A stretch of 64,000 nt of DNA from contig CAVSZB010000005.1 in assembly GCA_963732385.1 (NCBI GenBank), positions 39,742 to 103,741 on the forward strand. Reading direction: 5' to 3'. The notes under the pieces were generated by a model. It was given only the letters and a program-made list of their open reading frames with translations. It was not told where the DNA came from and ran no database searches. Source of the stretch: an uncultured bacterium (lineage in GTDB: Bacteria; Krumholzibacteriota; Krumholzibacteriia; LZORAL124-64-63). The translations under genes and the position numbers were made by a program. Within the stretch, counting starts at the first letter, position 1; every line of letters begins with the position of its first letter. Positions 26,433 through 50,027 of the stretch are shown here, one piece after another.

Positions 26433-26588
26433 CCAGCACAATCCAACGGCGGCGCCTGGACCGTTCCGTCCTGCGCTTGATCCTTGGCGTGTCCGGCGTT
26501 AGGATGCCCGCTCCGTTCGGGGTGTGCCCCACCGCCCGTCGACGGCCGGCGCAACACGTTGACCGCCCTATCTGAAAAGGACCTCCCC

Positions 26589-26909: not shown

Positions 26910-26921
26910 GACGGGGGGGCC

Positions 26922-27752: not shown

Positions 27753-27777
27753 GCGACCGGCGGAGGGTCGCAGCGAC

Positions 27778-28902: not shown

Positions 28903-28951
28903 CGCGCCCGGCGTGCCGGCCGTCCGCCGTTTCGCGGCACGGAGTTGAGCG

Positions 28952-31900
28952 ATGGCGAACGAGGTCCACCTCACCGGGCAGAACGTCCTCGACCCGCCCC
29001 CCCGGGACCGCTGGTTCGTCGACTACCTGCCGCTGTGCGGCGGCGACGAACTCACCTACTACGTCGACGGCGAGAGCTATGCCACCGACCTGCACGCCGC
29101 CCTCACCGGGGCCGCGCAGGAGATCTGCCTGACCGGCCTGCACTTCAGCGGCCACTTCCACCTCAAGCGGCCGGGCGGCTGCGATCCCCTGAAGCAGGAC
29201 GATCCCGACACGCTGCAGGAGATCCTGGCGGCCCGCAGCAAGGCCGGCTGCGAGATCTATCTGCTGGTGAACCAGTTCTGGCCGGACGAAGGGAAGCTCG
29301 CCGCCAACTACTGGCGCGCCTACCGGGATCTCGACAAGCTGCTCTGGAAGATGCCCAGCGCGATCCGCGGCACGATCATGGCCTCGGGCGGGATTCCCGA
29401 CTACCTGGAGCGGACGTTCGCCTTCTTCAAGTACCTCAAAGACCACGGCAACGCGGCGAAGATCCACTGCTACACCGACATCCACCAGGGCTACATCTTC
29501 CACAGCAACCACCAGAAGACGATCATCGTCGACCGCAAAACCGCCTTCTGGGGCGGCATCGACCTGACCGACATCGACGGCGACCGTTGGGACGCCGCCG
29601 CCCATACGCCGGGCAACAAGCTGCGCAACTTCGACAAGCCCGAGCGCAACTGGCACGACCTGCAGATGCGGGCCGTCAAGCCGCAGGGCGCCAAAGTCAG
29701 CGCCGTCGACTACGTCTACGCCAACTTCCTGGCGCGCTACAACCACGGCTACCTCTACACGCCGTGGCGCAACGGGCAGGGCGTGCTCGAGGCGAAGCAG
29801 GAGAGCGGCTTCCCCAGGCTGTCGCCGCCCGGCGGCAAGACCGCGCAAGACTACGTGCCGAAGAAGCATTGGTACTACCCGCGGCAGCGCGAGCGCTACC
29901 AGAAGCAGAACGTGCTGGCGTGGCCGCTCGTCCAGGTGGTCCGCTCCATGCCGGCGGGCGCCGGCGGCAACTACGCCCGCAACCAGCATCCGCTCTGGAA
30001 CGAGCTGCGGGTCGCGGTGCAGCCCGACCCGGATTTCCCGCCGCAGTACGTCAACCCCGCGTTCGAGCACTCCGCGCGCGACGCCTACCTCAAGGGGATC
30101 GCCGCCGCCGAGAAGTTCATCTACCTCGAGAACCAGTGGGTGGCCGACGACAGGATCTGGGCCGCGCTGTTCGCCGCCGCCGAGAAGCATGGCGCCGAGG
30201 CCGACTTCCGGCTGCTCGTCGTCCTGCCCAAGAAGTTCCTGGCCGCGGCCGGCTTCGGCAGCGAGCAGACGATCGACCTCAACCCGTACGTGGAGAAGCT
30301 CGCCCGCATCTTCAAGGCCAAGGGGCGGCCGGAGAACTTCGGCCTGTTCAGCATTTTGCAGCCGGCGGCCCACCAGGACCCGGTGCGCGATCAGACGCAG
30401 GTGCCGGAGTGCGTCTGGGACTACATGTACGTGCACTCCAAGCTGCTGATCGTGGACGACTGCTGGGCGCTGCTCGGCTCGGCCAACGCCGGCGGCATCT
30501 CGCTGACCGGCCTGGGCACGACGAGCGAGCCCGACACGGAGCTGTCGGCCATCGTGCTCGACGAACGGGACGACGGCTCGCTCGTCAAACAGCTGCGCAA
30601 GAAGCTCTGGGCCGAGCACCTCGGGGTGGCCGAAGGGAACGTGGCCGACTACAAGACCGGCGCCGACCTGTTCCACAAGCAGGCGAAGGAGCAGGCGTTC
30701 AACACGACGAGCGCCAGGCGCGCGCACTACAACCTGCTCTACTACCCCTCCTCCCCCAAGGCCGCCGCCGCGCCCAACCAGGGGGTGTGGCGCCACCTCA
30801 AGTGGGCGCAGATCCAGCACCAGGTGAAGGCGCGCGTGGCCGACCCCGACGCCATCCACCAGACCTACTACAACCTGAGCGGCCCGCTCACGGCCGTGCA
30901 CATGCTGCTCGAGCGCGATCCGTCGCGGTACGAGAAGCTGGTGGCCAATCTCTACAAGACCGGCGTCGACAAGGCGTGCGACGTGCGCCTGCAAATGCCC
31001 AACCCCCACCTGCACGACGTGCCGGTCCTGGTGCGGCCGCAGGAGCTGGTCGAGTTCGCCGTCGAATCCGAGCACCCGATCCTCGAGGTCGACTGGATGG
31101 TCGGCGGCGCGCTCACCGACAGCGCCAACTGGGTGCTCGACTACCAGGGCTCCGTGTCCGAGACCACGGCCACGGTCTGCTCCAACGGCGACATGGTGCG
31201 GCACCTCAAGAAGACCATCCCCTGCCAGGGCGGCGTCACCCACCTGAGCTGCGAGAGCTACGGCGAGCTGAAGGAGGCGCAGAAGGCGAGCCTGCTGCTG
31301 GGCACCGGCGCGCCGACGAAGCCGCACACGGTGTTCGGCGCGGTCAAGATCGGCACGGCGCTGCTGCTGCAGCGCGACGACGCGGCGGTCGAGCGCGACA
31401 AGGGCGTGGCCAACCGCGACCTGGGCGACCCGAAGTACTGGATCAGCCGCGTGACCGACAACCCGTGGCTGCAGCTCAGGCGCGACCGCGCCTACCCGCT
31501 CTACCCCGGCGTGCTGACCCCGTACGACGTGAAGCACATCCTGGGCGACCGGATGTACGTGCGCCTGCTCCAGCCGCTCGAGTTCAAGTACGACGGCGAC
31601 AAGATCACCCACGTGCGGATGAGCTTCTGGACCTGGGGCCACCGCTCCACGCTCGAGGTGCCGGCCGCGCTGTTCGCCAAGCAGGTCTACGGCTTCTTCA
31701 TCGGCTACTACACCAACGGCGCGCGCGCGCGGGCCGAAGAGAAGTTCCGGCTGCGCGCCGACAGGGTGAAGCTCAAGGCCGGCTGGCAGCGCGACTACGT
31801 GCACGACGACTGCGACGGCAGCAAGCTGACCGTGACCTGCGTCAGCGGCTCGCTGCGGGTGGAGCTGGCGCGGGCCGTCTGGTCGACGTGGGAGGTCGTG

Positions 31901-32041
31901 CGGACCGTCACCGTCGGCGCGGGGCAGTCGGTCCCGCTGGAGATCGGCGAGGCCTCGAAGGTCAACGACCAGGACGACCGGGCCAGGATCACGGCCCTGG
32001 CGGATGCGGAATACTCGCTCGACATGAAGAGCTGGACCTAG
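28952..32041 (+). CDS. Phospholipase D superfamily protein with two HKD motifs (Tle5/PldA-like T6SS lipase effector), 1029 aa
   Basis: HKD motif 1 HQKTIIVD...GGIDL and motif 2 HSKLLIVDD..GSANAGGIS. The size and PAAR/DUF2169 context match T6SS PLD effectors. Confidence 0.8.
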   Translation: MANEVHLTGQNVLDPPPRDRWFVDYLPLCGGDELTYYVDGESYATDLHAALTGAAQEICLTGLHFSGHFHLKRPGGCDPLKQDDPDTLQEILAARSKAGCEIYLLVNQFWPDEGKLAANYWRAYRDLDKLLWKMPSAIRGTIMASGGIPDYLERTFAFFKYLKDHGNAAKIHCYTDIHQGYIFHSNHQKTIIVDRKTAFWGGIDLTDIDGDRWDAAAHTPGNKLRNFDKPERNWHDLQMRAVKPQGAKVSAVDYVYANFLARYNHGYLYTPWRNGQGVLEAKQESGFPRLSPPGGKTAQDYVPKKHWYYPRQRERYQKQNVLAWPLVQVVRSMPAGAGGNYARNQHPLWNELRVAVQPDPDFPPQYVNPAFEHSARDAYLKGIAAAEKFIYLENQWVADDRIWAALFAAAEKHGAEADFRLLVVLPKKFLAAAGFGSEQTIDLNPYVEKLARIFKAKGRPENFGLFSILQPAAHQDPVRDQTQVPECVWDYMYVHSKLLIVDDCWALLGSANAGGISLTGLGTTSEPDTELSAIVLDERDDGSLVKQLRKKLWAEHLGVAEGNVADYKTGADLFHKQAKEQAFNTTSARRAHYNLLYYPSSPKAAAAPNQGVWRHLKWAQIQHQVKARVADPDAIHQTYYNLSGPLTAVHMLLERDPSRYEKLVANLYKTGVDKACDVRLQMPNPHLHDVPVLVRPQELVEFAVESEHPILEVDWMVGGALTDSANWVLDYQGSVSETTATVCSNGDMVRHLKKTIPCQGGVTHLSCESYGELKEAQKASLLLGTGAPTKPHTVFGAVKIGTALLLQRDDAAVERDKGVANRDLGDPKYWISRVTDNPWLQLRRDRAYPLYPGVLTPYDVKHILGDRMYVRLLQPLEFKYDGDKITHVRMSFWTWGHRSTLEVPAALFAKQVYGFFIGYYTNGARARAEEKFRLRADRVKLKAGWQRDYVHDDCDGSKLTVTCVSGSLRVELARAVWSTWEVVRTVTVGAGQSVPLEIGEASKVNDQDDRARITALADAEYSLDMKSWT

Positions 32042-32051
32042 GCGGCGGACA

Positions 32052-32663
32052 ATGGCACGCATCGAAATCGATCAGGGCGACTGCATCTCCAGTCTCGCGG
32101 CACGGCACGGGGTGCCGTGGGAGGCCATCTGGGACCATCCGGACAACGCCGACCTCAAGTCGCGGCGCGGGGATCCCAACGCCCTGCTGCCGGGCGACGT
32201 CGTGATCGTGCCCGATCCGCAGCTGAAGCAGGAATCGGGCGGCTCCGACACCCGGCATCGCTTCCGGCGCAAGGGGGCCGCTCCGCTGCTGCGGGTGCGC
32301 CTGCTCAAGGGGGGCGAGGCGTGGGCGAACGAGAAGTTCCGCGCCGTGATCGACGGGGCCTGGCAGGAGGGGACGACCGGCCCGGACGGGATGGCCGAGC
32401 TCAAGGTGCCGCCGGCCGCGCAAGGCGGCGCCATCCACATCGGCCCGGCCGACCGGCAGGACATCTACCACTTCCGGCTCGGGCACCTCGACCCGCTCGA
32501 CACCGACTCGGGCGTCCGCCAGCGGCTGGCCTGCCTCGGCTACGCCGTGGGCGAGGAAGCGGCCGGCGCGATCCGGGCCTTCCAGGCGGCCGAGGGGCTG
32601 ACCGAGTCGGGCCAGGCCGACGGCGCCATGCAGGCCAGACTCAAGGAGCGTTACGGGCGATGA
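32052..32663 (+). CDS. LysM + PG_binding_1 protein, paralog 1
   Basis: N-terminal LysM (IEIDQGDCISSLAARHGVPWEAIW...LLPGDVVIVP), C-terminal peptidoglycan-binding repeat (GVRQRLACLGY..AIRAFQAAEGL). No signal peptide. Confidence 0.7.
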   Translation: MARIEIDQGDCISSLAARHGVPWEAIWDHPDNADLKSRRGDPNALLPGDVVIVPDPQLKQESGGSDTRHRFRRKGAAPLLRVRLLKGGEAWANEKFRAVIDGAWQEGTTGPDGMAELKVPPAAQGGAIHIGPADRQDIYHFRLGHLDPLDTDSGVRQRLACLGYAVGEEAAGAIRAFQAAEGLTESGQADGAMQARLKERYGR

Positions 32664-33172
32664 ACGACCTGCCGCTCGGCAAGACGGTGCCGAAAGGGAA
32701 GGCGCACGGCGCGCTCGACGCACCGGTGATCGAAGTGTTCTTCCAGAAGTCGCCGGGCCGGGGCCTGGCACCCGACCAGGGCATCGCCGACCTTGAATAC
32801 GAGGTCCGCATCGGCGGCAAGACAACGCAGACCGGCAAGACCGGCAAGGACGGGCTGATCAAGGTGACGGCCACGGGCCCGGAGATCACGCTCGACCTGC
32901 GCGCGGGGGGCAGGACCGTCGCGAGCTACAAGCTGACCTGGACCGACGACCCGCTGGAGGCGGCCGCCACCCTGGAGGGACGGCAGCGGCGCCTGCGGCT
33001 GCTCGGCTACCAGATCGGGCACGCCGGAGCCGACGGGAGCGGCGTGGACGGCGTCACCGGCGGGGCGACCGAGCGCTCGATCCTCGATTTCCAGGTCGAC
33101 CACGGGCTCGCCGCGGACGCGGCCGTCGGGAACAACACGCAGAAGCGCCTGGTGAAGGAAGCGGGGGCCTGA
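32660..33172 (+). CDS. PG_binding_1-domain protein (170 aa)
   Basis: ATGA overlap with the upstream gene. C-terminal LLGYQIGHAGADGSGVDGVTGGATERSILDFQVDHGL. No signal peptide. Confidence 0.6.
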   Translation: MNDLPLGKTVPKGKAHGALDAPVIEVFFQKSPGRGLAPDQGIADLEYEVRIGGKTTQTGKTGKDGLIKVTATGPEITLDLRAGGRTVASYKLTWTDDPLEAAATLEGRQRRLRLLGYQIGHAGADGSGVDGVTGGATERSILDFQVDHGLAADAAVGNNTQKRLVKEAGA

Positions 33173-33176
33173 AGCG

Positions 33177-34319
33177 ATGGACACGATCTCCGTCAGGGTC
33201 TTCCGGAAGCTGCAGGTCGTGGCGCCGGTGCGCTTCGCGCGCGCGGCCACCGGCAACCCGCGGCGGGACCGCCCCGATCCCGACGACCGCGGCTTCGCCA
33301 TGGGCCACCGGCCGGGATCGTGGCAGAAGTCCGACGCGCGCGGCCCGATGCTCGGCCTGACCGCCGGCGACGAGGTCACGCTGAAGGTCCTGCGCGAGGA
33401 CATCAGCGCCGACGCCCCCATCCACATCACCAGCAGCGAGCCGGGCGTGGTGACCGTCACCTCCCCTGTCGCGGGCACCCCCGTCGGGGCCGACGGCGAG
33501 TTCACGATCAAGGCGGCCGACAAGCCGGCCAACGCGCCGGCCAAGATCCAGGCGCGGCTCGGTTCCGCGACCGGGCCGGTGCTCGGCGAGCTGGAGCCGC
33601 ACGTCTTCGCGCTGCGCTGGGTGCGGGTGCTCGCCCACCTGGTGACGATCGACGGCACGGCGACCACCCGCACCGCGGATTCGCTCGTGGCGCACTTCCG
33701 GCAGGTGAACGACATCTGGCGCCCGTGCGGGGTGCAGTTCATCTACGTGAAGGCCGCGACCGTCACCGAGCGGATCACCGGCACGCGGTACCGGCGCCGG
33801 GACGGCACCATGGCCGCCCTGCCGGCACCGCTCGGCCCGGGCGGCAGCTACGCCGCCGCCGGCACGGTCACCACGAACCTCGGCGCCTCGCACTGGGAGG
33901 AATTCTCCACCCTGCTGCAGATCTACCCGGCGGCCAACGCGGTGAACGTCTACTTCGTCGGCGCGGCGCCCGAGTGGAACGGCCTGACGTACGATCACGA
34001 CATCCCGCGGCCCAACGGCTACGGCATCGCGATCGCCGACGCGGCCTCCGCCACGGACACGGCGCACGAGCTCGGGCACTTCCTGAACCTCGACCGCCAC
34101 TCGGACGAGAACGCCACGGGCGCGATCGTCCGTCGCGACATGTGGAACATCCGGCGTCTCATGTACAGCGTCTGGCCCCCGGCGACCCCGGCGCACAGGC
34201 ACGACGTCGGCTACGGTCCCAACCGCTACGGGGCGGTGATCTCCCTGAAAGACCTGCCGCGTGAGGCCAGCGACGGCGAGTGCCAGCGGGCGCGCAGTCG
34301 GGCCGCCAACCCCTACTGA
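33177..34319 (+). CDS. HExxH zinc-metallopeptidase-like protein, candidate T6SS effector
   Basis: TAHELGHFLNLDRHSDE (HExxH plus a downstream His/Asp). No signal peptide. It lies 5 nt after the PG-binding gene. Confidence 0.55.
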   Translation: MDTISVRVFRKLQVVAPVRFARAATGNPRRDRPDPDDRGFAMGHRPGSWQKSDARGPMLGLTAGDEVTLKVLREDISADAPIHITSSEPGVVTVTSPVAGTPVGADGEFTIKAADKPANAPAKIQARLGSATGPVLGELEPHVFALRWVRVLAHLVTIDGTATTRTADSLVAHFRQVNDIWRPCGVQFIYVKAATVTERITGTRYRRRDGTMAALPAPLGPGGSYAAAGTVTTNLGASHWEEFSTLLQIYPAANAVNVYFVGAAPEWNGLTYDHDIPRPNGYGIAIADAASATDTAHELGHFLNLDRHSDENATGAIVRRDMWNIRRLMYSVWPPATPAHRHDVGYGPNRYGAVISLKDLPREASDGECQRARSRAANPY

Positions 34320-34369
34320 GCGGCGGAGAGGGCGCGCGGCGCCGGGCCGCGCGCAGACGGTGGAAACGG

Positions 34370-35281
34370 ATGCAGAAACGCTTGCGAAGCGGTGAACTGG
34401 CGGTCGCGGCCCTGGCGCTGCTGGTCCTCTCCTGCGGGGGGAACCGCGATCACGCGGATCGGCGCGACACGAAAGGCGACGCGGCGACGTCGGCAAGCCC
34501 GAAGGGAACAGCCATGCAACAGGCACAGATCATCGAGCGCATCCGGCAGGGGGACGGCTCCGTCATCGACGAGGTCGCCCCGCTCGGCCCCGGCATCACG
34601 CGGGACCTCATCCCCCTGACAAGCGACGCCGACCCCGAGGTGCGCGAACTGGCCCTCTACTGCCTCAACGAGGCGGGCGGCCCCGAGGCGCCGGCCGTGT
34701 TCGCCGCCGCGCTGCGCGACACGGTGGACACCGTCCGCTACCGGGCCTGCCTCTTCCTGCACCGCCACCACACCCCGTCGCAGGGCCCCGAACTGCTGCG
34801 GCTGCTGCGCGACGAGCCCGATCCGTACGTGCGCGGCGAGCTGGCGCTGATCCTCGCGGAGATGGGCGACCGGGAGGCCACGCCGCTGCTGCGGGCGCGC
34901 CTGCCCCACGAGCCCGACCCGGAAGCGCGCGACAAGCACCGGCTGGCCCTGGCCCGTCTGGAGGACGGCCAGGAGCGTCGCGACATCCACGCGGCCCTCG
35001 CCGACGCCAGCGTGGAGGTCCGTTACCGGGCGCTGCGGGACTTCGCCTACCTGGGCGACCGGACGCAGGCGTCGCGCCTGCTGCCGCTGCTCGACGACGA
35101 GCGGCCGGCCGAGAACGTGGCGCCCGGAGGCCACGCCCGTTTTGTCCGCCTGTGCGACGTCACGGTGCGCACGCTCGACGCGCTGCTCGCGCACCCGTTC
35201 CCGTTCCCGGTGGAGTTCACGAAGCAGTACTCGCCGGAGGAGATCCGGCAGGCGAAGGAAGTGCTGGCCACGCCCCGCTGA
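34370..35281 (+). CDS. HEAT-repeat lipoprotein (candidate periplasmic immunity protein)
   Basis: Signal peptide plus lipobox (LLVLSCGG). Repeated DPEVRELALYCL / DPYVRGELALILAEMG HEAT/PBS-lyase-like repeats. Confidence 0.55.
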   Translation: MQKRLRSGELAVAALALLVLSCGGNRDHADRRDTKGDAATSASPKGTAMQQAQIIERIRQGDGSVIDEVAPLGPGITRDLIPLTSDADPEVRELALYCLNEAGGPEAPAVFAAALRDTVDTVRYRACLFLHRHHTPSQGPELLRLLRDEPDPYVRGELALILAEMGDREATPLLRARLPHEPDPEARDKHRLALARLEDGQERRDIHAALADASVEVRYRALRDFAYLGDRTQASRLLPLLDDERPAENVAPGGHARFVRLCDVTVRTLDALLAHPFPFPVEFTKQYSPEEIRQAKEVLATPR

Positions 35282-35302: not shown

Positions 35303-36043
35303 TCAGCAGCCGTGCAGCTCGACGAGCTTGTCGCGGACGGCCTGGTCGATCTCGCCGCTGGCCTCGAGCCCGTTGCGCTCCTGGAACTCCCTCAGGGCGG
35401 CCCGCAGTTCCGGTGTCATCTCGTCGCTCCGGCCGCAGCGATAGCCGAGGTTCTCGAGGCGCTTGCACACGCCGGCGATCTGGTCGACCGGGTCCATGTC
35501 CCCCAGCCTCAGCGCGAAGACCTCCTGCCGGCTCGTGCCGGGCCGCACGACCAGCCGCCCCCGGCGCGCGCCGGGCGGGATGCGGCATTCGATGCGGCCG
35601 TCGCCGTCGGTGGTGCCGTCGGTGAGGATCCCGTCGACCTCCAGCACGTACGGCACGTTGGCGCGGGGCGACGGCGCGGCCGGGGCGGACGCGGCGGCGC
35701 CGGTTCCGCCTGACGCGGCCGCCGCGGGGTCCCTGAGCTGGAAGCGGAGCATGCCGGTCTCGCCGCGCCGCCTGAAGCGGTGCAGGCTGCCGGCCGGGCC
35801 CGTCTCCTGTTTCGGTCGCGGCTCCGGTATCGTGATCCGGTCGCCCGCCAGCAGGACGTGCGGGTTCCCGCGCACCCGCTTCAGCTCGGCGTTCTCCGGC
35901 AGGTCCCACAGGGTCCGCCAGAAGAAGCCGTGGCTCGCGGCGATGCTGTCGAGGCAGTCGCCCGCCTCGACGACGTAGTCCCCCTGCCCCACCGGGCCGG
36001 ACGGGGGCGGTGAAGCGGCGCCGGGCGCGGAATTGCCGGTCAT
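35303..36043 (-). CDS. LysM + PG_binding_1 protein, paralog 2
   Basis: Same architecture as paralogs 1 and 3 (YVVEAGDCLDSIAASHGF ... GVCKRLENLGY..ALREFQERNGL). Confidence 0.7.
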   Translation of the reverse strand: MTGNSAPGAASPPPSGPVGQGDYVVEAGDCLDSIAASHGFFWRTLWDLPENAELKRVRGNPHVLLAGDRITIPEPRPKQETGPAGSLHRFRRRGETGMLRFQLRDPAAAASGGTGAAASAPAAPSPRANVPYVLEVDGILTDGTTDGDGRIECRIPPGARRGRLVVRPGTSRQEVFALRLGDMDPVDQIAGVCKRLENLGYRCGRSDEMTPELRAALREFQERNGLEASGEIDQAVRDKLVELHGC

Positions 36044-36053
36044 CGACGGCTCC

Positions 36054-37400
36054 TCAGAAGTCGTACATCACATCGGGCTCGGGCGGCGCGATGGAGGCCC
36101 GGATCGTCAGCCGGGTCAGGAACGGGCTGTGCGTGTGGCCGATCACGTAGACGGCGAAGTTAGGATTGGCGACGTAGGCCAGCGCGGCGGTGGTCAGGTA
36201 GTAGTCGCGCCGGCTCGGATCCCACTGGCGTATGCTCGGGGTCGTGAACACGCGGTTCGTGATCGACTGGCCGCTGACGGCCCCGTCGCGGTTGGCGCTG
36301 TCGCAGCGGTGGCCGTGCTCGATGTACACGCCATCCGCGCGGTACTCGCGCCGGCGCGCCGGCACGCCGGGCGGCACGTGCGCGGCCAGGTAGCAGTCGT
36401 GGTTCCCCCACAGCCACGACTTGTGGCCGACCGCGAGGGAGTGCAGCCCCGTGATGGCCTCGGGGTTCACCGCCGCCGTCCGGCGCATCCAGTAGTCGAT
36501 GAACTCGACCGCCCCGAGGACCACCTCGCCGCCCCGGGCGCGCAGGTCCTGCAGCCGCACCTCGTGGGCGTCGCGCTCCTGGAAGAACCGGTCGAGGCCG
36601 ATCCACAGGTCGTACATGTCACCGGCCTGGACGAAGTGGATGCGGTCGCGCACGCCGGAGGCGCCGAGCAGCCGGGCGAAGAGCGCCAGGTCCGCCCCCG
36701 CGCCGCCGAAGATGTCCCCGGCAAGGTAGCGGTCGTACCAGGTCAGGACGCTGCCGGTGCGGTTCGGGTCGAAATCGAAGCGCCCCATCCGGTACTCCGG
36801 CTCGACCAGTTCCTGCCAGGCCACGAACTGGCCGCCCCGTTCGCCCCAGTGCTCCTGCGTGGCGGGGCGGCAGTCGACGAGCGGCAGGTGCAGGTCGCCC
36901 AGGATGACATGGACCTGGTCCCAGCTCACGGGGGCCCGGGACGGCGACCAGACGCGCTTGACGAGGCGGACGGAGCTGTGCGGCCCGCAGAGGGCCGCGA
37001 TCACGTCGTTCATGGGACGGGCATTGACGGCCACGGTCGGCGGCGCGCCGCCGGCGCGGCTGCGGAATTCGCAGAGCGCGACCCACTGTCCCCAGACGAG
37101 CCCGAAGCTCCGCTGGGGGTTGGACCCGTCGCCCCAGCGGCCGACATCCATGAACGCCAGCACCGGCGGCGAGGTGATGAGGGTGTTGACGACCTGCGCG
37201 TCGGTGCGGCCCCGCGCCACGCACACCTCGCCCTGGTAGGTCAGCTCGGTCCAGACCGTGGCGATCACGCCCTGCCACGTGTCGGGCCAGTCTCCGACCG
37301 GCGCGTCGCACCGGGAGAGGTGGCCCGTCTCGGTGAACGTCAACTCGGCCGTGACGTCGTCCGGAATGGTCTCGCCGTAGCCATTGGGAATGTCAGGCAT
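36054..37400 (-). CDS. Calcineurin-like metallophosphoesterase (448 aa), candidate T6SS effector
   Basis: Metallophosphatase motifs ILGDLHLP, GDMYDLW, GNHD, EHGHRCD and GHTHSP. No signal peptide. Flanked by LysM-PGB paralogs downstream of vgrG. Confidence 0.7.
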   Translation of the reverse strand: MPDIPNGYGETIPDDVTAELTFTETGHLSRCDAPVGDWPDTWQGVIATVWTELTYQGEVCVARGRTDAQVVNTLITSPPVLAFMDVGRWGDGSNPQRSFGLVWGQWVALCEFRSRAGGAPPTVAVNARPMNDVIAALCGPHSSVRLVKRVWSPSRAPVSWDQVHVILGDLHLPLVDCRPATQEHWGERGGQFVAWQELVEPEYRMGRFDFDPNRTGSVLTWYDRYLAGDIFGGAGADLALFARLLGASGVRDRIHFVQAGDMYDLWIGLDRFFQERDAHEVRLQDLRARGGEVVLGAVEFIDYWMRRTAAVNPEAITGLHSLAVGHKSWLWGNHDCYLAAHVPPGVPARRREYRADGVYIEHGHRCDSANRDGAVSGQSITNRVFTTPSIRQWDPSRRDYYLTTAALAYVANPNFAVYVIGHTHSPFLTRLTIRASIAPPEPDVMYDF

Positions 37401-37434: not shown

Positions 37435-38100
37435 TCAGGATCCGTGCTCCGCGGCCAATTTGTCGCGCGTCTTCTGGTCCGGCTCGCCCGTCGCCTCGAG
37501 ATCGCAGGCCCGCTGGAAGTCGCCGAGCGCGGCGCGCGTCGGCTCGTCCAGCGCGCCCGACGCCGGGCACGGATAGCCCAGGTTCTCGAGCCGCTGCTGA
37601 ACGCCGGTAAGCGACTCGACCGGATCGAGCCCGCTCAGCCGCAGCTCGAACGTCTGCTGGTCCTGCTCGTCCTGCCCCACGACCAGGGTGCCGCGCTGCG
37701 CGTTCGGCGGCACCGGCACCTCGACCACGCCATCGCCGTCGGTGCTGCCCTGACTCAGCCTGCCGTCGATGTTGAGCGTGTACGGCTCGTTCTTGCGCGG
37801 CTCGCCATCGCGCAGGATCCGCACGCGCAGCTTCGACGGCAGCCCCTTGCGGTGGAAGCGGTGCTTGCGGCCGTCGGCCCCGGGCTCCTGCTTCGGGCGC
37901 GGGTCGGGAACCTGCACGCGGTCGCCCGGCAGCAGCAGCGACGGGTCCTTGCGCTCCCGCTTGAGCTGCGCGTTGTCGGGGTGGTTCCAGAGGGTGTCGG
38001 GCAGGTAGCCGTGCGCCAGGGCGATGCTCTCGATGCACTCGCCCTGCTTCACGACGTAATTCCCGCCGCCCACCGGTTTCGCCGTCGCGCCGTCGGCCAT
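37435..38100 (-). CDS. LysM + PG_binding_1 protein, paralog 3
   Basis: The ATG abuts the vgrG stop with zero gap. YVVKQGECIESIALAHGY...LLPGDRVQVP plus C-terminal GVQQRLENLGY..ALGDFQRACDL. Confidence 0.7.
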   Translation of the reverse strand: MADGATAKPVGGGNYVVKQGECIESIALAHGYLPDTLWNHPDNAQLKRERKDPSLLLPGDRVQVPDPRPKQEPGADGRKHRFHRKGLPSKLRVRILRDGEPRKNEPYTLNIDGRLSQGSTDGDGVVEVPVPPNAQRGTLVVGQDEQDQQTFELRLSGLDPVESLTGVQQRLENLGYPCPASGALDEPTRAALGDFQRACDLEATGEPDQKTRDKLAAEHGS

Positions 38101-40419
38101 CTAGGCCTTCTCCCAGGTGTCCTGGTCCAGGTCGGGGAAGGTGATCTGGCAGTTGCCCGGCTCGATCCCCTCCACCCGCGCGAGCCCCTTCTCGTCGAGC
38201 GTGCCCTCGGCCGTGGAGCCGTCGGGCAGCTCGATCCGGTAGCGCTCGCCCGGCACCGGCTGGTTGTCGTCATCCACCAGTTCGATCTCGATCCAGCTCG
38301 TCTTGCGCGCCTTCTCCTCGGACGTCTTGGGCGGCTTGTGCGGCGTGACCTGCGTCATGGCGCCGGCCACCGCGTCGCCCGCGACGACCGCCGCGATCGG
38401 CACCGCCGGCGGCACCAGGCCGAGCGCGCTGATGGCGTCGGCCGCGGAGCCGGGACCCGAGTTGATCTTGGTCATCCCGCCGTCGATGGTGACGACCGAG
38501 CCCTTCAGCGTCACGCCGGCCGGATCGATGACCACGCTGTTGCCGCCGCACTTCAGGGTGATCTTCGTCATCCCCTCCACGACGATGCCCATCGCCTTCA
38601 GGTGCAGGTTCTGCCCCACCTCGGCGAAATAGTTCGCGTTGTAGGCCTCGCTCACGTCGCCCTTGACCTTCAGCGAGCGGCTGCCGCCGATCTCGATCGC
38701 CTCCTTGCCGACGACCTTGCGGTGGCGGTCCTTGCCGATCTCCTCGACGTGGTCGGCGCCCACCTTCTCCTGGCGGTTGTTGTCGACCTGCTCGATCTGG
38801 TCCTTCTTGACGTACAGGTGACGGTCGTTGCCGATCCACTCGCGGGCGTCGTTGCCGACGCGCAGATCCTCGTCCCGCTCGGCGCGCACGAACAGCTGCT
38901 CGGCGCCCTTCTTGTCCTCGAAGCGGATCTCGTTGAAACCGCCCCCGCCCTTGCTGGACAGGCTCTTGAGGGCCGACATCGTGGCGTTGGCCGGCAGGTC
39001 GTACGGCGGCATGGCGGCGCTGTTGTAGACCCCGCCGGTGATGAGCGGGCGGTCCGGATCCCCTTCCAGGAATTCGACCACCACCTCGTGTCCGATGCGC
39101 GGGATGAACAGCCCGCCCCACTGCTTGCCGGCCCACGGCTGGGCGACGCGGATCCAGCACGAGCTGGTCTCGTCGGCCTGGCCCTGCCGGTCCCAGTGGA
39201 ACTGCACCATCACGCGGCCGTGCTTGTCGACGTGGATCTCCTCCCCCTTGGGGCCGACCACGAAGGCGGTCTGCGGCCCGGGCACGCGCGGCTTGGGCGT
39301 CAGGCGCGCCGGCCGGTACGGCACCGCGTGGGGCATGCAGACGAAGCGGTTCTCGTACTTGCTGGTCCAGCGATCGATGGCGCCGCCGCTCTCGAACACC
39401 GCCTCCTGGGTCAGCTCGTGCCGCACCTCCGTCAGCAGGTAGCTCTGCGCGAAGTCGGCGCGGGGATGCTCCGCCAGGTCGAAGCGGTGGCCCGGCAGGA
39501 AGGCGCGGCAGTCGCTCTCGCCCCGCACCTGGACGGCCAGCTGGTCGCCCTCCTGGCGGCGCAGCTTGAGCCGGGCCTCGCCGAGGTTGAGCTTGCCGGC
39601 CTGCTCGGACCCCAGCGTGGCGTAGGCGCCGGGGTAGTCGAAGATCTCCAGCCGCCGGTCGCCCCCCTCGGGCACGGTGCTGTTGGCCGAAACCAGCAGG
39701 CTCGTGCCGGGATCCAGGAAGTTGAAATCGCACAGGCTGTAGGCGCCGGGCTGCAGCGTGTGCTCGGCCGTCCAGGCCCGCACCGAGTCGGTGTTCTCGT
39801 GCCGGTCGGCCCCCGGGTCGAAGCTGGCGATCGGCTGGTCGGGACAGGGGGGATTGCGGCCCGGCGCGTCGGCCAGCACCAGCTTGTGCATCGACGGGCC
39901 GTGCTCGAAGAAGTAGAAGATCCCCTCCTCCTCGAGCAGCCGCGACACGAAGCTGAAGTCCGACTCGCGGTACTGGACGCAGTAGACCCACGGCTCGTAG
40001 GTCCCGTCGAGCCGCAGCTCGAAATCGTTGAGCTTGAGCCCGGTGAACACCTTCTTGACGATGTCGGGCACGGTCTCATTCTGGAAGATGCGGCAGTCCG
40101 TGCGCCGCGTGAGCAGCCACGGCCACGGCACGAGCTCCGCGTGATAGACCGTCAGACGGCGGTCCGAACCGGCCTGCGCGAAGCGCGAGATCAGGCCATG
40201 GATGCGGCGCTTGCCGCCGTCGGCGAGCGCGATCTCGATCAGCGCCGGCTGGCCGATGAGGGCCTTGAAATCGATGGCGTCGTCCTCGGCCAGCAGCTCG
40301 AGCTGGAACTGGAACGGACGCGAAACGCCTTCCCAGCCCGTCAGCCGCCGCACCAGCAGCTTGTCCTCGCCCAGCGGCGTGCTGATGTTACAGATCCGGC
40401 CTTCCTGCTGGAAAAACAT
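38101..40419 (-). CDS. vgrG: T6SS spike protein VgrG (TssI)
   Basis: 772 aa. N-terminal gp27-like/gp5-like regions with canonical VgrG blocks (RLTGWEGVSRPFQFQLEL, VVEFLEGDPDRPLITGGVYN). Confidence 0.9.
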   Translation of the reverse strand: MFFQQEGRICNISTPLGEDKLLVRRLTGWEGVSRPFQFQLELLAEDDAIDFKALIGQPALIEIALADGGKRRIHGLISRFAQAGSDRRLTVYHAELVPWPWLLTRRTDCRIFQNETVPDIVKKVFTGLKLNDFELRLDGTYEPWVYCVQYRESDFSFVSRLLEEEGIFYFFEHGPSMHKLVLADAPGRNPPCPDQPIASFDPGADRHENTDSVRAWTAEHTLQPGAYSLCDFNFLDPGTSLLVSANSTVPEGGDRRLEIFDYPGAYATLGSEQAGKLNLGEARLKLRRQEGDQLAVQVRGESDCRAFLPGHRFDLAEHPRADFAQSYLLTEVRHELTQEAVFESGGAIDRWTSKYENRFVCMPHAVPYRPARLTPKPRVPGPQTAFVVGPKGEEIHVDKHGRVMVQFHWDRQGQADETSSCWIRVAQPWAGKQWGGLFIPRIGHEVVVEFLEGDPDRPLITGGVYNSAAMPPYDLPANATMSALKSLSSKGGGGFNEIRFEDKKGAEQLFVRAERDEDLRVGNDAREWIGNDRHLYVKKDQIEQVDNNRQEKVGADHVEEIGKDRHRKVVGKEAIEIGGSRSLKVKGDVSEAYNANYFAEVGQNLHLKAMGIVVEGMTKITLKCGGNSVVIDPAGVTLKGSVVTIDGGMTKINSGPGSAADAISALGLVPPAVPIAAVVAGDAVAGAMTQVTPHKPPKTSEEKARKTSWIEIELVDDDNQPVPGERYRIELPDGSTAEGTLDEKGLARVEGIEPGNCQITFPDLDQDTWEKA

Positions 40420-40441: not shown

Positions 40442-43105
40442 TCAGGTCATCCGGTACTGGAACGTCCCCTGGTCCACGAGCACCTCGACGCGCGAGAACG
40501 GCTCGCTCGCCGCCATCCGCGTCAGAAACTCCACCGAGATCTGCGGCAACAGCGTCTGGGTGAGGATGTGATCGATGGCCCGGGCCCCGCTTTCCGCCTC
40601 GGTGCAGCGCGCGGCGATCGCCTCGAGCAGGTCGTCGCCATAGACGAAGTCGACCCGGTGGTTCTGCCGCACGCGGCGGGCGATCCGCCCGAGCTGCAGG
40701 CTGATGATGCGCCGCAGCGGCTCGCCCTGGATCGGATAGTACGGCACGACGACCATGCGTCCGAGCAGCGCGGCCGGGAACTGCCGCAGCAGCTCGGGGC
40801 GGATCGCGTCGGCCAGCCCTGCCGGCTCCGGGCAGGTCTCCGGGTCGGCGCACAGCTTCATGATCGTATCCGAACCGACGTTGGAGGTGAGCAGGATCAC
40901 GGTGTTCTTGAAGTCGATCTCCCGCCCCTGGCCGTCTTCGAGCATCCCCTTGTCGAACACCTGGTAGAACAGCTCCATCACGTCGGGGTGGGCCTTCTCC
41001 ACCTCGTCGAGCAGGACCACGGCGTACGGACGCCGACGCACCGCCTCGGTGAGCACGCCCCCCTCGCCGTAGCCGACGTAGCCGGGCGGCGCCCCCTTCA
41101 GGCTCGAAACCGTGTGCGCCTCCTGGTACTCCGACATGTTGATCGTGATCAGATTGCGCTCGCCGCCGTAGAGCGCCTCGGCCAGCGCCAGGGCGGTTTC
41201 GGTCTTGCCCACGCCGCTCGGACCGACGAGCAGGAAGACCCCCACCGGCCGCGACGGGTTGTCGAGGCCGGCGCGCGCGGTGCGGATCCGGCGCGCCACC
41301 GCCTCGAGGCCGTGGTCCTGGCCGATCACCCGCTCGCGCAGCCGGTCGCCGAGATTGAGCACGGTCTGGATCTCGTCGGCCACCATGCGGCCGGTCGGGA
41401 TGCCGGTCCAGCCGGAGATCACCTCGGCGATGGTCTGGTCGCTGACCTCGCAGCCGACGAGCGGCTGCTCCCCCTGGAGCCTGGCGAGCTGGCCGCGCAG
41501 CTTGTCCAGCTCGGCGCGCAGCTTCTTCTGCTCGGCGGCCTTGAGCGGCTCGCTCCCCTCCTCCCCCTCCAGCCGGGTGCGGACGGCCACGAGCTTGTCC
41601 ACCAGCTCCAGCTCCTGCTTCCAGCGCGTCTCCATCTCGGCCAGGCGCGTGGCGCTGTCGGCGCGGGCGGCGGCGATCTCGGCCAGCCGCTCCGCATGGT
41701 CGACGCCCAGGGCGCTCTCGCGCTGGAGGATGCGCGTCTCGGTGTCGAGCGCGTCGAGCCGCCGGTGGAGATCCTCCACCGGCGCCGGCGTGGCGCTGCG
41801 GCCGATGGCCACCCGCGCGCAGGCCGTGTCGAGCACGCTGACCGACTTGTCGGGCAGCTGGCGGGCCGGGATGTAGCGGTGCGACAGCTTCACGGAGGCG
41901 GACACCGCGCCGTCCAAAATGCGCACCCCGTGGTGCTTCTCGAGCTTCGGCGAGAGACCGCGCATCATCTCCACGGCGGAGCTTTCGGTCGGCTCGTCCA
42001 CCTTGACCACCTGGAACCGCCGCGACAGCGCGGGGTCCTTCTCGAAATAGCGTTTGTACTCCGCCCAGGTGGTGGCGGCGATCGTGCGCAGCTCGCCGCG
42101 CGCGAGGGCCGGCTTGAGCAGGTTCGCGGCGTCATTCTGCCCCTCCTGGCCGCCGGCGCCGATCATGGTGTGCGCCTCGTCGATGAACAGGATGATCGGC
42201 CGCGGCGACGTTTTGACCTCGGAGATGACCTGCTTGAGCCGGTTCTCGAACTCGCCCTTGACCCCGGCCCCGGCCTGCAGCAGCCCGAGATCGAGCGTGC
42301 GCAGCGCCACGCCCTGCAGGATCGGCGGCACGTCGCCCGCCGCGATGCGCAGCGCGAACCCCTCCACGACGGCCGTTTTGCCCACGCCGGCCTCGCCGGT
42401 CAAAATCGGGTTGTTCTGGCGGCGACGCGTGAGGATGTCGATGATCTGGCGGATCTCCGCGTCGCGCCCCAGGACCGGGTCGACGCGTCCGGCCTGCGCT
42501 TCGGCCGTGAGGTCGATCGTGAACTGGTCCAGGGCCGGCGTGCCGGCCCCGGCCACCGCGCCGGCGGCCCCGCCGGCCGCACCGGCGCCGCCGACCGGCG
42601 CGCCCGCGCCGAGCGCGAACACCTCGCGATCCTCGGGCGAGCCCGCCACGATCGCGGCGAACTCGTGCTCGAGCGTCTCGAGCTTGATGCGACGCAGGTC
42701 GGGCGAGGCGTCGAGCAGGCGGCGCTGCAGCTGCCGATCGCCGAGCGCCCCCAGCAGCAGGGCTCCCGAGCGCACCCGGGCGGTGCCGAGATTGATCGAC
42801 GAAAGCACCCACCCCTCCCGCATCACGTCCTCCAGGCTCGGCGAGAGCTGGGGCCGGCCGCCATTGCCGGTCTTGTACTGGTCGAGCGACCGCTCGAGGT
42901 CGCGCAGGAAGCGGTCAGGCTCGATCTCGAACCGGCGCAGGATGCGGTCGAAATCGCCGCCGGTCCCCTCGCCCAGCTTCATGAACCAGTGCTCGAGCTC
43001 CACCTCGTAGTGGGTGCGTGAAAGACAGAGCCCCGCCGCGCCCTCCAGCCCGCGCCGGGCATTGTCCGTCAGCTTCCCGACCAGCGACTTCAGGTTCAGA
43101 CTCAC
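40442..43105 (-). CDS. clpV: T6SS AAA+ ATPase ClpV (TssH)
   Basis: 887 aa. Two AAA+ modules (GEAGVGKTAVVEG; GPSGVGKTETALALAE) and a ClpV-type N-domain. Confidence 0.9.
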   Translation of the reverse strand: MSLNLKSLVGKLTDNARRGLEGAAGLCLSRTHYEVELEHWFMKLGEGTGGDFDRILRRFEIEPDRFLRDLERSLDQYKTGNGGRPQLSPSLEDVMREGWVLSSINLGTARVRSGALLLGALGDRQLQRRLLDASPDLRRIKLETLEHEFAAIVAGSPEDREVFALGAGAPVGGAGAAGGAAGAVAGAGTPALDQFTIDLTAEAQAGRVDPVLGRDAEIRQIIDILTRRRQNNPILTGEAGVGKTAVVEGFALRIAAGDVPPILQGVALRTLDLGLLQAGAGVKGEFENRLKQVISEVKTSPRPIILFIDEAHTMIGAGGQEGQNDAANLLKPALARGELRTIAATTWAEYKRYFEKDPALSRRFQVVKVDEPTESSAVEMMRGLSPKLEKHHGVRILDGAVSASVKLSHRYIPARQLPDKSVSVLDTACARVAIGRSATPAPVEDLHRRLDALDTETRILQRESALGVDHAERLAEIAAARADSATRLAEMETRWKQELELVDKLVAVRTRLEGEEGSEPLKAAEQKKLRAELDKLRGQLARLQGEQPLVGCEVSDQTIAEVISGWTGIPTGRMVADEIQTVLNLGDRLRERVIGQDHGLEAVARRIRTARAGLDNPSRPVGVFLLVGPSGVGKTETALALAEALYGGERNLITINMSEYQEAHTVSSLKGAPPGYVGYGEGGVLTEAVRRRPYAVVLLDEVEKAHPDVMELFYQVFDKGMLEDGQGREIDFKNTVILLTSNVGSDTIMKLCADPETCPEPAGLADAIRPELLRQFPAALLGRMVVVPYYPIQGEPLRRIISLQLGRIARRVRQNHRVDFVYGDDLLEAIAARCTEAESGARAIDHILTQTLLPQISVEFLTRMAASEPFSRVEVLVDQGTFQYRMT

Positions 43106-43137
43106 GAATCCCCTCCTCGCATCCGGGATCGTTGCGC

Positions 43138-44193
43138 TCAGGCCACGGCGCTTGCCGGCGCCTGCGCGTCGATGAGGATTTCCGCCGACGCCTCCCGCGT
43201 CCGCGCCGACTGGAGCCAGGTGGACCAGCCGAGCCAGGGCGCGCCGTGCGCGTCGGCCACGCCCAGGCGCAGGCCGGGCACCGCCTCGGGCCGCAGCACG
43301 AGCTGCAGGTCGAAATCGTGCTCCGCGCCGGCGCCCAGCCGCACCATCTCGACCAGCGGCCGGAAGGCCTGGCCGGTGGGCAGCAGCTCCTGGAACGCCG
43401 GCCAGTCGAGCGGGCCGAGGCGCAGCCGGAAGCGCGCCTGCGCCACCTGCACGCGGCCGCCGAGCGTCAGATCGCAGCCCAGCTGGTTCGCGTACCGGCC
43501 GAGCCGGCTGCGCTCCTCCTCACCGATGACATACCACTCGGGAACGAACTGCTCCACGGCGACCGGCACGCCGAAATAGCTCTCCAGCAGGTCCGCCAGC
43601 CCGACGGCGGTGACGCGACCGCGCCGGAACGCCGACGCCCGCGCCAGCAGGGCGCGCGCGTCGAACGGCAGCTCGTGCCCCGTGTCGGGCGCACCCAGAC
43701 CGAGCAGCGAGAGCAGAGCGCGCTCGAACACGCCCGGCTTGTCGCTGTCATCCCGTTCGTAGGTGATCGGAAAGCGGTACTTGGCCCAGGCGCGGTAGAA
43801 GAGCGAGACCAGCCGATGGTTGAACAGGTCGAAGAAGTCGCGCAGCGCCGTGTCGCGCTCACGCAGCCGGGTCAGCAGCAGCTCCACGTACGGCGTCGGC
43901 AGGCTGCCGAAGCTGGCGGGGGTGGCGAGGCCCATGAAGGCGACCGTGAGCTGCGCCGGCCCCTCGCCGGTCGGAGCGGTCACGGACCTGACGTCGCTTG
44001 GCGGGAAGGCCAGCGAGACATCGGAGAGGAAGCGAACCGTCTCGCGACGCGGATCGTCCCCTTCGCCGACAGGCACGGCTGCCGACGCCCCGAGCTGCAG
44101 CAGGCGCACCGCCTGGAAGAACTCGAAGCGGTATCCGTGCGCGAACAGCAGTTCGCTCAGGTCAGCGTGACTTGTCCGGCGCGAGGCGGCCAC
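43138..44193 (-). CDS. tssG: T6SS baseplate protein TssG
   Basis: N-terminal ELLFAHGYRFEFFQAVRLLQ matches the TssG/ImpH family. Overlaps the end of tssF. Confidence 0.8.
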   Translation of the reverse strand: MAASRRTSHADLSELLFAHGYRFEFFQAVRLLQLGASAAVPVGEGDDPRRETVRFLSDVSLAFPPSDVRSVTAPTGEGPAQLTVAFMGLATPASFGSLPTPYVELLLTRLRERDTALRDFFDLFNHRLVSLFYRAWAKYRFPITYERDDSDKPGVFERALLSLLGLGAPDTGHELPFDARALLARASAFRRGRVTAVGLADLLESYFGVPVAVEQFVPEWYVIGEEERSRLGRYANQLGCDLTLGGRVQVAQARFRLRLGPLDWPAFQELLPTGQAFRPLVEMVRLGAGAEHDFDLQLVLRPEAVPGLRLGVADAHGAPWLGWSTWLQSARTREASAEILIDAQAPASAVA

Positions 44194-46055
44194 CGCTTCA
44201 TCACCCCTTCCGCCTGGCGGCCGACGGCCACCGTCTGGGTGAACGAGTTCACCGTCGTGTAGAGCCCGAAGAAGCGCTCCAGGACCGACGCGAAGAGGAA
44301 CGCGCTGCTGCCGGCGTACTTCGCCTCGTCGAACTCCAGCGTGACCTCCAGGCCCCGCACGAACAGGCGTCCGCTGCCCGTCGCCACGCGCCTCAGCGCG
44401 CGCTGCGCGCGCACGCCGACCAGGCCGGAAATACGTTTGCGGGTCGCCTCGGAGTTGACGTAGTCGAGCAGCGAAAGCAGCTCCCGCAGCGCGACCGGAT
44501 CGCTGGCGGGCGTGGCGGATGACGCGCCGCCCTCCTCCTCGGTCGTGGCCTCGGGCGCCAGACCGGACAGCGAGAGATGGTTGAGCTGGAGCATCGACAC
44601 CAGACGCCAGTGTCCCTCGCGCCGCAGCGGCAGGCGCAAGGTGGGCGTCGGCTTGCGCAGGGCGCGGACCCGCGTCACGCCGGGCTGCCCTTCGATCTGG
44701 AAATCGCCGCGCTCGTCACCCAGGAGCAGGCCGGCCGGCACGTCGCGGTTGCTGCAGACGGCGCGGACCATCAGGGTCTCGCTCGGCATCTCCTGCAGCG
44801 GACGCCCGTTGCGGTCCGCCAGCATCAGGAACAGGTCCGTGCCCGGGTCGCCCTCCCGCGGCGACGGGCGTCGCGTGGCGCTCCAGAAGGCCGGCTCGTG
44901 CCCGCGCGGGTCGCCGTGACGCAACGAGTAGAAGGGGCGGTAGCTCGTGACCGCGCCCGTACCCGGCTCCACCGACTCCACATCCTGCACCGCGATGACC
45001 TCGTAGGCGTGAGCGGCGTGCAGGTCGGGAACGACCGCGTACTCCGACACGGCGTGGGTCAGCCGGATCGGCTCGGCCTGGTAGGGGAACAGGTTGACGG
45101 CGGGCGCGCAGCCGAGCCGCAGGCTCTCGGGACCGAGCGCGCTGGCCAAAGCGAGCGGCGGCTGTTCGAGCAGGACCAGCAGCTCGAGATCCGGTCCGCA
45201 ACCGGCGAGCACGTCGGGAGTCAGACCGGCGATGTCGACGAACAGGAACTTGTCGGGGAAACAGAAATAGTCCTGCAGCAGGCCGTAGCCGACCTGCGAC
45301 GCGGGCGTGCTTTCGAGCAGCATCTCGTCCGGGCCGAAGCCGACGGCCTGCAGCCGGTCGGGCGGCAGGAAACGGCCCGGCGTACGGCGCCCGGCCGGAG
45401 CGTTCGTGGCCTGGCCGTTCTGCACCAGCACGCCCAGAGGATTCCGCATCAACTGGCCGTAGAGCTGGTGGGCGATGTCGGGCGATCCGTCCACGAAGAA
45501 GCGCAGGGAGCCCAGCGGCAGTTGCGCGAAATTCTGCGCGCCGATCGTGCGCAGCCTGATGCGGATCGCGCCCGCCGCCCCGGCGGGAGCGCCGGGGTGA
45601 CCGCGATCCAGGGGCGCGACGTCCACGCCGGTCACCTGGATCGGCCAGAGCGTGACCGGGTAGCAGGTGCGGAACCGGCAGCGCACCCCGCCGACGGGGC
45701 GGGTGTGCAGCAGGGAGTGGCGCGGCAACCGGATGCCGGTCGTCGCCTCGGCGCGGCTGGCGTCGGGCGTGAACTGCGCGATGGTGAGCGAGGGCACCGG
45801 CGCGAGCAGCTGCGGGTAGAGCGCGCCCAGAAATGCATTGGTGATCTCGGGGAACTCGTCGTCGAGGCGCAGCTGCACGCGCGCCGTCAGGACCGCGAAC
45901 GCCTCGATCATCCGCTCCACGTGCGGATCCTCGCACCGGTCGGGCTCCAGGAGGAGCTGGCTGGCGATGCCGGGATGCTTGGCGGCGAACTCCGCCGCCA
46001 GGCGCCGGATGAAACGCAGTTCGCGCTCGTAGTACTGCTGCAATTCGTCGGACAT
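44157..46055 (-). CDS. tssF: T6SS baseplate protein TssF
   Basis: Starts MSDELQQYYERELRFIRRLAAEFAAKHPGIASQL. ATG at 46055 with a 1-nt ATGA overlap with tssE. The upstream 345 nt of the ORF frame are antisense read-through. Confidence 0.85.
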   Translation of the reverse strand: MSDELQQYYERELRFIRRLAAEFAAKHPGIASQLLLEPDRCEDPHVERMIEAFAVLTARVQLRLDDEFPEITNAFLGALYPQLLAPVPSLTIAQFTPDASRAEATTGIRLPRHSLLHTRPVGGVRCRFRTCYPVTLWPIQVTGVDVAPLDRGHPGAPAGAAGAIRIRLRTIGAQNFAQLPLGSLRFFVDGSPDIAHQLYGQLMRNPLGVLVQNGQATNAPAGRRTPGRFLPPDRLQAVGFGPDEMLLESTPASQVGYGLLQDYFCFPDKFLFVDIAGLTPDVLAGCGPDLELLVLLEQPPLALASALGPESLRLGCAPAVNLFPYQAEPIRLTHAVSEYAVVPDLHAAHAYEVIAVQDVESVEPGTGAVTSYRPFYSLRHGDPRGHEPAFWSATRRPSPREGDPGTDLFLMLADRNGRPLQEMPSETLMVRAVCSNRDVPAGLLLGDERGDFQIEGQPGVTRVRALRKPTPTLRLPLRREGHWRLVSMLQLNHLSLSGLAPEATTEEEGGASSATPASDPVALRELLSLLDYVNSEATRKRISGLVGVRAQRALRRVATGSGRLFVRGLEVTLEFDEAKYAGSSAFLFASVLERFFGLYTTVNSFTQTVAVGRQAEGVMKRWPPRAGQVTLT

Positions 46056-46537: not shown

Positions 46538-46565
46538 CGCCGTCCCCTTGCGCCGACACCCGGCG

Positions 46566-47381: not shown

Positions 47382-47404
47382 CACCCACCGCCCCCTTGCC
47401 GGCC

Positions 47405-49480: not shown

Positions 49481-49481
49481 G

Positions 49482-50012: not shown

Positions 50013-50027
50013 CTTGGTCCCTCCCTC

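Follow-up and report, generated by a model that had tools for sequence, protein, structure and literature searches.

What is a metallophosphoesterase doing two genes downstream of vgrG? The question is raised by a stretch of 64,000 nucleotides from an uncultured bacterium of the Krumholzibacteriota (GenBank assembly GCA_963732385.1, contig CAVSZB010000005.1, positions 39,742 to 103,741), referred to here as the window, which contains genes of a type VI secretion system (T6SS). Positions 36054..37400 on the minus strand hold an ATG-initiated gene for a divergent calcineurin-like metallophosphoesterase (MPE) of 448 amino acids, a candidate T6SS cargo effector. Our answer, held with moderate confidence, is that the protein is a VgrG-dependent cargo effector, a two-metal phosphoesterase that would act most likely in the envelope of the target cell. 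That it might be VgrG-linked cargo had been proposed in an earlier annotation made from the DNA alone (the original prediction), and the proposal now gains support from conserved synteny in distant phyla, from the lack of signal peptides, from a natural fusion of the enzyme to LysM and peptidoglycan-binding (PGB) modules and from an experimental precedent (PMC10673891).

At the GC content of the window, about 70%, long spurious open reading frames (ORFs) are common. ORF 36054..37400 is a genuine gene, not one of these chance frames, since its third-position GC of 0.92 is on a par with that of the other genes in the window, its ATG is preceded by the Shine-Dalgarno-like sequence AGGAAGG and its homologues extend to a best E-value of 7.6e-271. 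No Sec or Tat signal peptide is present in the encoded protein or in about 177 family members whose N-termini were inspected and scanned for hydrophobicity, in agreement with the cytoplasmic-type protein originally described. At the extreme N-terminus most of these members carry a conserved family-specific motif, NGxGExxPD, seen in the window protein as NGYGExxPD (residues 6-15; 37356..37385, minus strand), and this may be a determinant of loading.

The ordered motifs of a two-metal site – DxH, GD, GNH[DE], H and GHxH – are all present, as the original prediction had it, and across an alignment of 47 family members their ligands are either invariant or conserved in 46. Motif I, GDLH (residues 168-171; this and the following motifs all on the minus strand, here at 36888..36899), supplies the metal ligands D169 and H171, invariant in 47/47. 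Motif II, GDMYD (residues 260-264; 36609..36623), contains the invariant G260 and D261, the latter found in all 47 members, and is followed by LWIG, reminiscent of GDLFEAWIG in LpxH. In motif III, GNHD (residues 332-335; 36396..36407), N333, H334 and D335 are invariant in 47/47. Motif IV, EHGH (residues 361-364; 36309..36320), has the ligand H362 in 46/47, with H364 alternating with Q, and motif V, GHTH (residues 421-424; 36129..36140), has H422 and H424 likewise in 46/47; for H362, H422 and H424 the sole exception is a gap. Since all metal ligands, and with them the catalytic His of GNHD, are intact, the protein is predicted to be a working hydrolase, a two-metal phosphoesterase.

Standard domain annotation fails on this family, and automated effector catalogues therefore miss it. 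Pfam Metallophos (PF00149, clan CL0163) scores the window protein at 15.8 bits (E = 0.02), below its gathering cut-off of 21.5, and reaches E < 0.01 in just 10 of the 47 relatives. NCBIfam and PHROGs have no match to the enzyme; neither phmmer with the enzyme nor a profile of the 47 sequences finds anything meaningful among all PDB sequences; Foldseek with the enzyme against the PDB returns no match at E ≤ 0.001; and Rfam finds nothing within the window. The enzyme does have the β-sandwich fold of the metallophosphoesterases, and structure comparison identifies LpxH (PDB 5b49) as the nearest fold, at 15% identity, with a much weaker similarity to sphingomyelinase. By hhalign, motifs II-IV fall in register with those of Escherichia coli LpxH, at E = 0.006 and a probability of 6%. 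Six relatives match the LpxH model PRK05340, the best at E = 0.037, and three bear the LpxH name given by JGI annotators; the window protein itself is matched by neither of the NCBIfam LpxH models, PRK05340 and TIGR01854.

The enzyme thus belongs to the metallophosphoesterase superfamily, nearest to LpxH but outside it, because it has GNHD and not GNRD, is some 200 residues larger and occurs in a different context. Motif III of LpxH is the GNRD variant, whereas GNHD is invariant in the 47 members of the present family. The additional length comprises an extra N-terminal domain and long inserts, and while LpxH serves lipid A biosynthesis, the enzyme described here lies in a T6SS vgrG operon. 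In the predicted model, three polar helices (residues 375-411) are placed between motifs IV and V, where LpxH has its lipid-binding lid. Two other placements fail on their diagnostic features. PPP-family Ser/Thr protein phosphatases are recognised by the signatures GDxHG, GDxVDRG and GNHE, which the enzyme does not carry, and an assignment to the Mre11/SbcD nucleases is contradicted by the lack of any match to a nuclease family model and of a capping domain in the enzyme.

The MPE is the second gene past vgrG, on the same strand and in the same operon as ClpV and VgrG, so that its position is as originally described. The VgrG spike protein (38101..40419, minus strand; 772 residues with a C-terminal extension) matches TIGR03361 at E = 9.8e-192 and contains Phage_GPD, Phage_base_V and Gp5_trimer_C; further upstream on that strand, Pfam matches identify the T6SS core genes ClpV, TssG, TssF, Hcp, TssC, TssB and TssA (40442..51116). 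Between vgrG and the MPE is encoded a LysM-like/transthyretin-like (TTR)/PG_binding_1 protein of 221 residues (37435..38100, minus strand), a probable VgrG-to-cargo adaptor or co-effector, and a second such paralogue, of 246 residues (35303..36043, minus strand; PG_binding_1 E = 6.9e-09), is the last gene of the operon, 10 nt past the MPE stop. Gaps across the four genes are of 0-34 nt. The flanking paralogues had been correctly recognised in the original prediction: in both, PG_binding_1 is found above threshold and a LysM-like N-terminus below it, and their mutual identity is 50%.

What had been missed is that these LysM-PGB proteins are likely to be loading adaptors and not passive neighbours. 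The three paralogues in the window (the third is described below) and their relatives share a LysM-like N-terminus, a conserved basic linker, a β domain and a C-terminal PG_binding_1. The C-terminus is a canonical peptidoglycan-binding domain; for the middle domain, which resembles TTR, the match is to the VgrG chain in the complex of VgrG with Tle1. A related β domain is present at the C-terminus of the window's own VgrG (residues ~708-772; 38104..38298, minus strand), where hhalign against the LysM-PGB profile gives a probability of 67% and E = 5e-5 over 31 columns with a shared TTR-like motif; the same VgrG segment also matches separate small ORFs in other loci. In enteroaggregative Escherichia coli the TTR domain lies within VgrG1 and binds the phospholipase cargo Tle1 directly (PDB 6sjl), whereas here a TTR-like domain is also found on a separate protein, which from its sequence would be predicted to hold the cargo. 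Homologues of the adaptor lie elsewhere between vgrG and unrelated large genes, encoding 1233 residues in L032 (L numbers denote loci), 971 in L033, where the TssF..ClpV-VgrG layout is that of the window, and 691 in Sorangium. Because the same connector precedes unrelated large proteins in other genomes, the position following it bears the signature of a swappable slot for exchangeable effectors.

Such a delivery route has an experimental precedent. Stand-alone LysM proteins of vgrG loci have been shown to be required for the binding of downstream effectors to VgrG (PMC10673891, 2023), and the same study found both LysM and PG_binding_1 either on their own or joined to the N-termini of toxins, with PG_binding_1 listed as a vgrG-locus module. 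The order of vgrG, stand-alone LysM and effector is the same in Ketobacter (Kalk_10465 VgrG, Kalk_10460 LysM, Kalk_10455 toxin) and in Burkholderia (BRPE67_05220), and both free and fused forms are found for the present family as well (see P0003 below; P numbers denote proteins). The present system differs in that its adaptor combines LysM-like, TTR-like and PG_binding_1 domains and is present in two copies around the enzyme, and in that an immunity gene was identified for the published pairs but none is recognisable in the window. The delivery logic of VgrG, LysM adaptor and cargo is already known; it is the catalytic family that is new to it. Among T6SS effectors in the searchable literature, none of metallophosphoesterase, calcineurin-like, LpxH or lipid II type was found to have been characterised. 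The single mention found is a predictive bioinformatic remark on Neisseria, in which a metallophosphatase is a putative VgrG-linked effector, and the original comment that this fold is poorly described among T6SS effectors accordingly holds.

Is the arrangement seen in the window conserved? Homologue loci were collected from a scan of species-representative genomes (27 loci), with more from contig look-ups, and neighbours were detected by tblastn with the proteins of the window. Same-strand vgrG, LysM/PGB and MPE genes are found in Planctomycetota (L002) and Myxococcota (L012-L014, L022, L023, L027), and in a Phycisphaerales locus (L017) they follow TssF-ClpV as they do in the window. The order in L029 is TssC-Hcp-TssE-F-G-VgrG-LysM/PGB-enzyme-PGB. 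Minicystis rosea (L011) has vgrG ahead of the enzyme on the same strand, with no LysM-PGB gene detected, and in a Terriglobales locus (L024) LysM-PGB precedes the MPE with vgrG just downstream on the opposite strand. Loci of Gemmatimonadota, Fibrobacteraceae and Armatimonadales have LysM-PGB and the enzyme without a detected full-length VgrG, and in Gemmatimonadota-type loci an OmpA-like peptidoglycan-binding protein is encoded directly upstream of the MPE. Overall, the MPE has a PGB-type gene immediately before it in 16/30 loci and a VgrG gene within 10 kb in 11/30, many of the loci outside these counts being truncated contigs or contig edges. PAAR, DUF4123, DUF2169 and RHS genes are frequent nearby, and linkage of the MPE to vgrG or the adaptor extends to at least seven phylum-level groups. 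The L029 island also encodes, at 10638-11759, a 373-residue PG_binding_1 protein whose C-terminal HYCGRAVD...WWHFQ resembles, as a motif reading, zinc peptidases of the LAS/VanY type.

An exhaustive profile search with the family returns 617 representative clusters at E ≤ 1e-3, of which 251 pass E ≤ 1e-30; by sequence, then, the family is sizeable and unannotated. Several of its members are fusions. P0003 (670 residues) carries LysM and PG_binding_1 at the N-terminus of the enzyme, the only fusion of that kind among 177 family members; P0014 and P0015 (617 residues) are Amidase_3::MPE fusions; and in P0264 a subtilase is fused in front of the enzyme domain. The association with subtilase recurs in L028 (1-9854), where the gene for P0015 is preceded by a subtilase gene and five consecutive genes without a Pfam match. 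A sub-branch comprising P0246, P0249, P0252, P0256 and 11 more proteins, of 842-935 residues, has a common C-terminal extension of about 270 residues, and other family members have helical, Ala/Arg-rich N-terminal extensions; neither type of extension matches Pfam.

The gene, its motifs and fold, the conserved synteny, the fusions and the domains of the adaptor are established by the sequence data; for secretion, toxicity, compartment and substrate we infer the following scheme. Synthesised without a signal peptide, the enzyme would start out in the cytoplasm and be mounted on the tip of the VgrG spike by the LysM-like/TTR-like/PG_binding_1 protein encoded between the two, possibly with help from the second paralogue. 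It would then be fired into a neighbouring cell and there, its ligands and the catalytic GNHD His being intact, act as a two-metal phosphoesterase, most likely in the target envelope, where it would break a pyrophosphate or phosphodiester bond in a molecule that is lipid-linked or associated with the wall. Candidate substrates are lipid II or nascent glycan-PP-undecaprenol, a nucleotide-sugar precursor and a phosphodiester-linked wall polymer. Given that LpxH is its nearest relative, the most economical guess is that it attacks a pyrophosphate or phosphodiester in a molecule linked to lipid or wall. The original prediction offered several candidate activities, among which the cell-envelope or pyrophosphatase option appears to fit best, because of the LpxH-like fold, the amidase fusions and the peptidoglycan-binding partners.

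Colicin M and pyocin M are bacteriocins that act in the periplasm as lipid II phosphoesterases and kill by cleaving the phosphate linkage in the lipid-linked precursor of peptidoglycan. They offer a functional analogue of what is favoured here, lipid II being a hypothetical substrate for our enzyme; their fold is unrelated and they enter through Ton/Tol import, whereas the present enzyme would enter through a T6SS. A bolder version of the proposal, to which we give little credence, would make the enzyme the founding member of a T6SS metallophosphoesterase toxin family as large as the 617 clusters, killing by cleavage of the pyrophosphate or phosphodiester linkage in lipid- or wall-linked peptidoglycan intermediates in the manner of colicin M, with the LysM/TTR/peptidoglycan-binding partner both clamping it to VgrG and tethering it to the peptidoglycan of the victim.

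Several observations weigh against envelope-directed cargo. No immunity gene adjoining the MPE is recognisable in the window, a fact that had escaped the original prediction: the next gene encodes the LysM-PGB protein without a signal peptide. All-against-all clustering of the ORFs of 28 loci, with inspection, finds no downstream family conserved across phyla except LysM-PGB paralogues. This second, downstream LysM-PGB copy is also kept in L002, L004, L006, L007 and L029; that it is an immunity protein is unlikely, since a signal peptide is missing and the unrelated PLD effector is likewise followed by a paralogue, at 43% identity. LysM and PGB modules may in any case be mere VgrG connectors, uninformative as to the target. 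The similarity to LpxH is modest, and the helices between motifs IV and V, as read from their sequence, are not lipid-like. The Amidase_3::MPE fusion represents a single evolutionary event. Finally, the subfamily P0017-P0019 lies beside glyA in an ordinary chromosomal context, with T6SS genes absent within 8 kb.

Immunity candidates can nevertheless be suggested elsewhere. In two Polyangiaceae loci, those of Minicystis rosea (L011, 11223-11558) and of a Byssovorax metagenome-assembled genome (L027, 8194-8538), a conserved protein of 111-114 residues with three predicted transmembrane segments is encoded immediately after the MPE and looks, on sequence grounds, like a typical immunity candidate. 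Next in both loci come genes for a 271-residue protein, a CobW-like GTPase and a WD40-like protein, and also a more divergent second copy of the enzyme gene. In the region of the window enzyme, the only obvious candidate for periplasmic immunity is a HEAT-repeat lipoprotein with the lipobox LVLSC (about 34370-35281, plus strand), on the strand opposite to the MPE.

How do other explanations compare? A serious rival, although one we consider doubtful, is that the MPE is a T6SS cargo toxin whose substrates are nucleic acids or soluble nucleotides in the cytoplasm of the target, either as a DNase or RNase comparable to Mre11/SbcD or to the Pseudomonas nuclease MPE, or as a pyrophosphatase or phosphodiesterase directed against NAD+, UDP-sugars, Ap4A or cyclic nucleotides. 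The envelope is favoured because the partners carry three types of peptidoglycan-binding module (LysM, PG_binding_1 and OmpA-like), because one lineage has the enzyme joined to a peptidoglycan amidase, because co-encoded effectors are envelope-directed (PLD, HExxH and, in L029, the LAS-like PGB protein) and because the three-transmembrane immunity candidate follows the gene in the Polyangiaceae. The partner domains, the fusions to a periplasm-acting amidase and to peptidoglycan-binding modules, and the membrane location of the Polyangiaceae candidate, which points to the membrane or periplasm, all count against a cytoplasmic toxin, as does a nearest fold that is LpxH and not a nuclease, with neither capping domain nor nuclease family model. 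Bacterial walls are also where the peptidoglycan-binding partners and amidase fusions point when the alternative is an effector aimed at eukaryotes (protists or fungi), such as a phosphodiesterase of phosphoinositides or sphingomyelin. Such an effector would not need immunity, but the similarity to sphingomyelinase is much weaker than that to LpxH, and we regard this possibility as very improbable.

The lack of an adjacent immunity gene, in the window and in many loci, would also be explained if the MPE were a secreted but non-toxic helper, stripping or remodelling a phosphoester-linked envelope component such as wall glycopolymers and so giving the co-encoded wall-degrading effectors (amidase, PLD, HExxH peptidase) access to their substrates, since a helper needs no immunity protein. 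The MPE does sit among other envelope-directed effectors, and the Amidase_3::MPE fusions would then pair helper with lytic enzyme. Yet in many loci it is the sole enzyme beside VgrG and the adaptor, and the small membrane protein conserved right after the gene in the Polyangiaceae is placed as an immunity protein would be, which leaves a helper role rather unlikely. Scarcely credible is a protein that is not secreted at all, whether a cytoplasmic regulatory or accessory phosphatase of the T6SS, for example opposing PpkA-like kinases and FHA proteins, or a housekeeping bystander. The window does encode two Ser/Thr kinases and FHA proteins and contains no PP2C-type phosphatase (PppA), PPP-family protein phosphatases share the metallophosphoesterase superfamily fold, and the orphan subfamily beside glyA is found in a non-T6SS context; a PPP-type regulator of a PpkA/FHA pathway is, however, rejected on the motifs and the position of the gene.

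Effectors of the T6SS have much to offer as sources of new enzymatic activities and of antibacterial targets, and the present family spans poorly studied phyla: Krumholzibacteriota-like bacteria, Gemmatimonadota, Planctomycetota, Myxococcota, Acidobacteriota, Fibrobacterota and Armatimonadota. Should the substrate prove to be an envelope phosphoester, a new killing chemistry would be added to the T6SS repertoire, and the operon would provide a clean model for the loading of cargo onto VgrG by LysM/TTR/peptidoglycan-binding adaptors. A nucleotide- or nucleic-acid-degrading enzyme would still represent a toxin fold new to the T6SS.

Convergent with the MPE operon is a second effector operon (26484..35281, plus strand), encoding PAAR, a Pro/Ala-rich protein of 276 residues, DUF2169, a PLD-type protein of 1029 residues and then four further genes. 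The first of these four, following the PLD-type gene, encodes the third LysM-PGB paralogue (32052-32663, plus strand). It is succeeded by a 170-residue PGB protein, possibly with a TTR domain (32660-33172, plus strand), by a 380-residue HExxH protein with the zinc-peptidase motif HELGH and no Pfam match (33177-34319, plus strand) and by the HEAT-repeat lipoprotein mentioned above.

The left end of the window contains TssK, TssJ, the two PpkA-like kinases and the FHA proteins. The kinases, at 2634-7134, have PEGA domains. A 607-residue protein (9400-11223, minus strand), adjoining another FHA protein and the two kinases, is a fusion of two FHA domains to an SLT lytic transglycosylase domain. 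Beside these regulatory genes lies an island of low GC content (12599-15655, plus strand; 54-57% against about 70%) with three genes, for an unknown protein of 238 residues, a GmrSD_N/DUF262 protein (13557-14654) and a RelA_SpoT-domain protein (14660-15655); its appearance is that of a defence- or toxin-type module gained by horizontal transfer.

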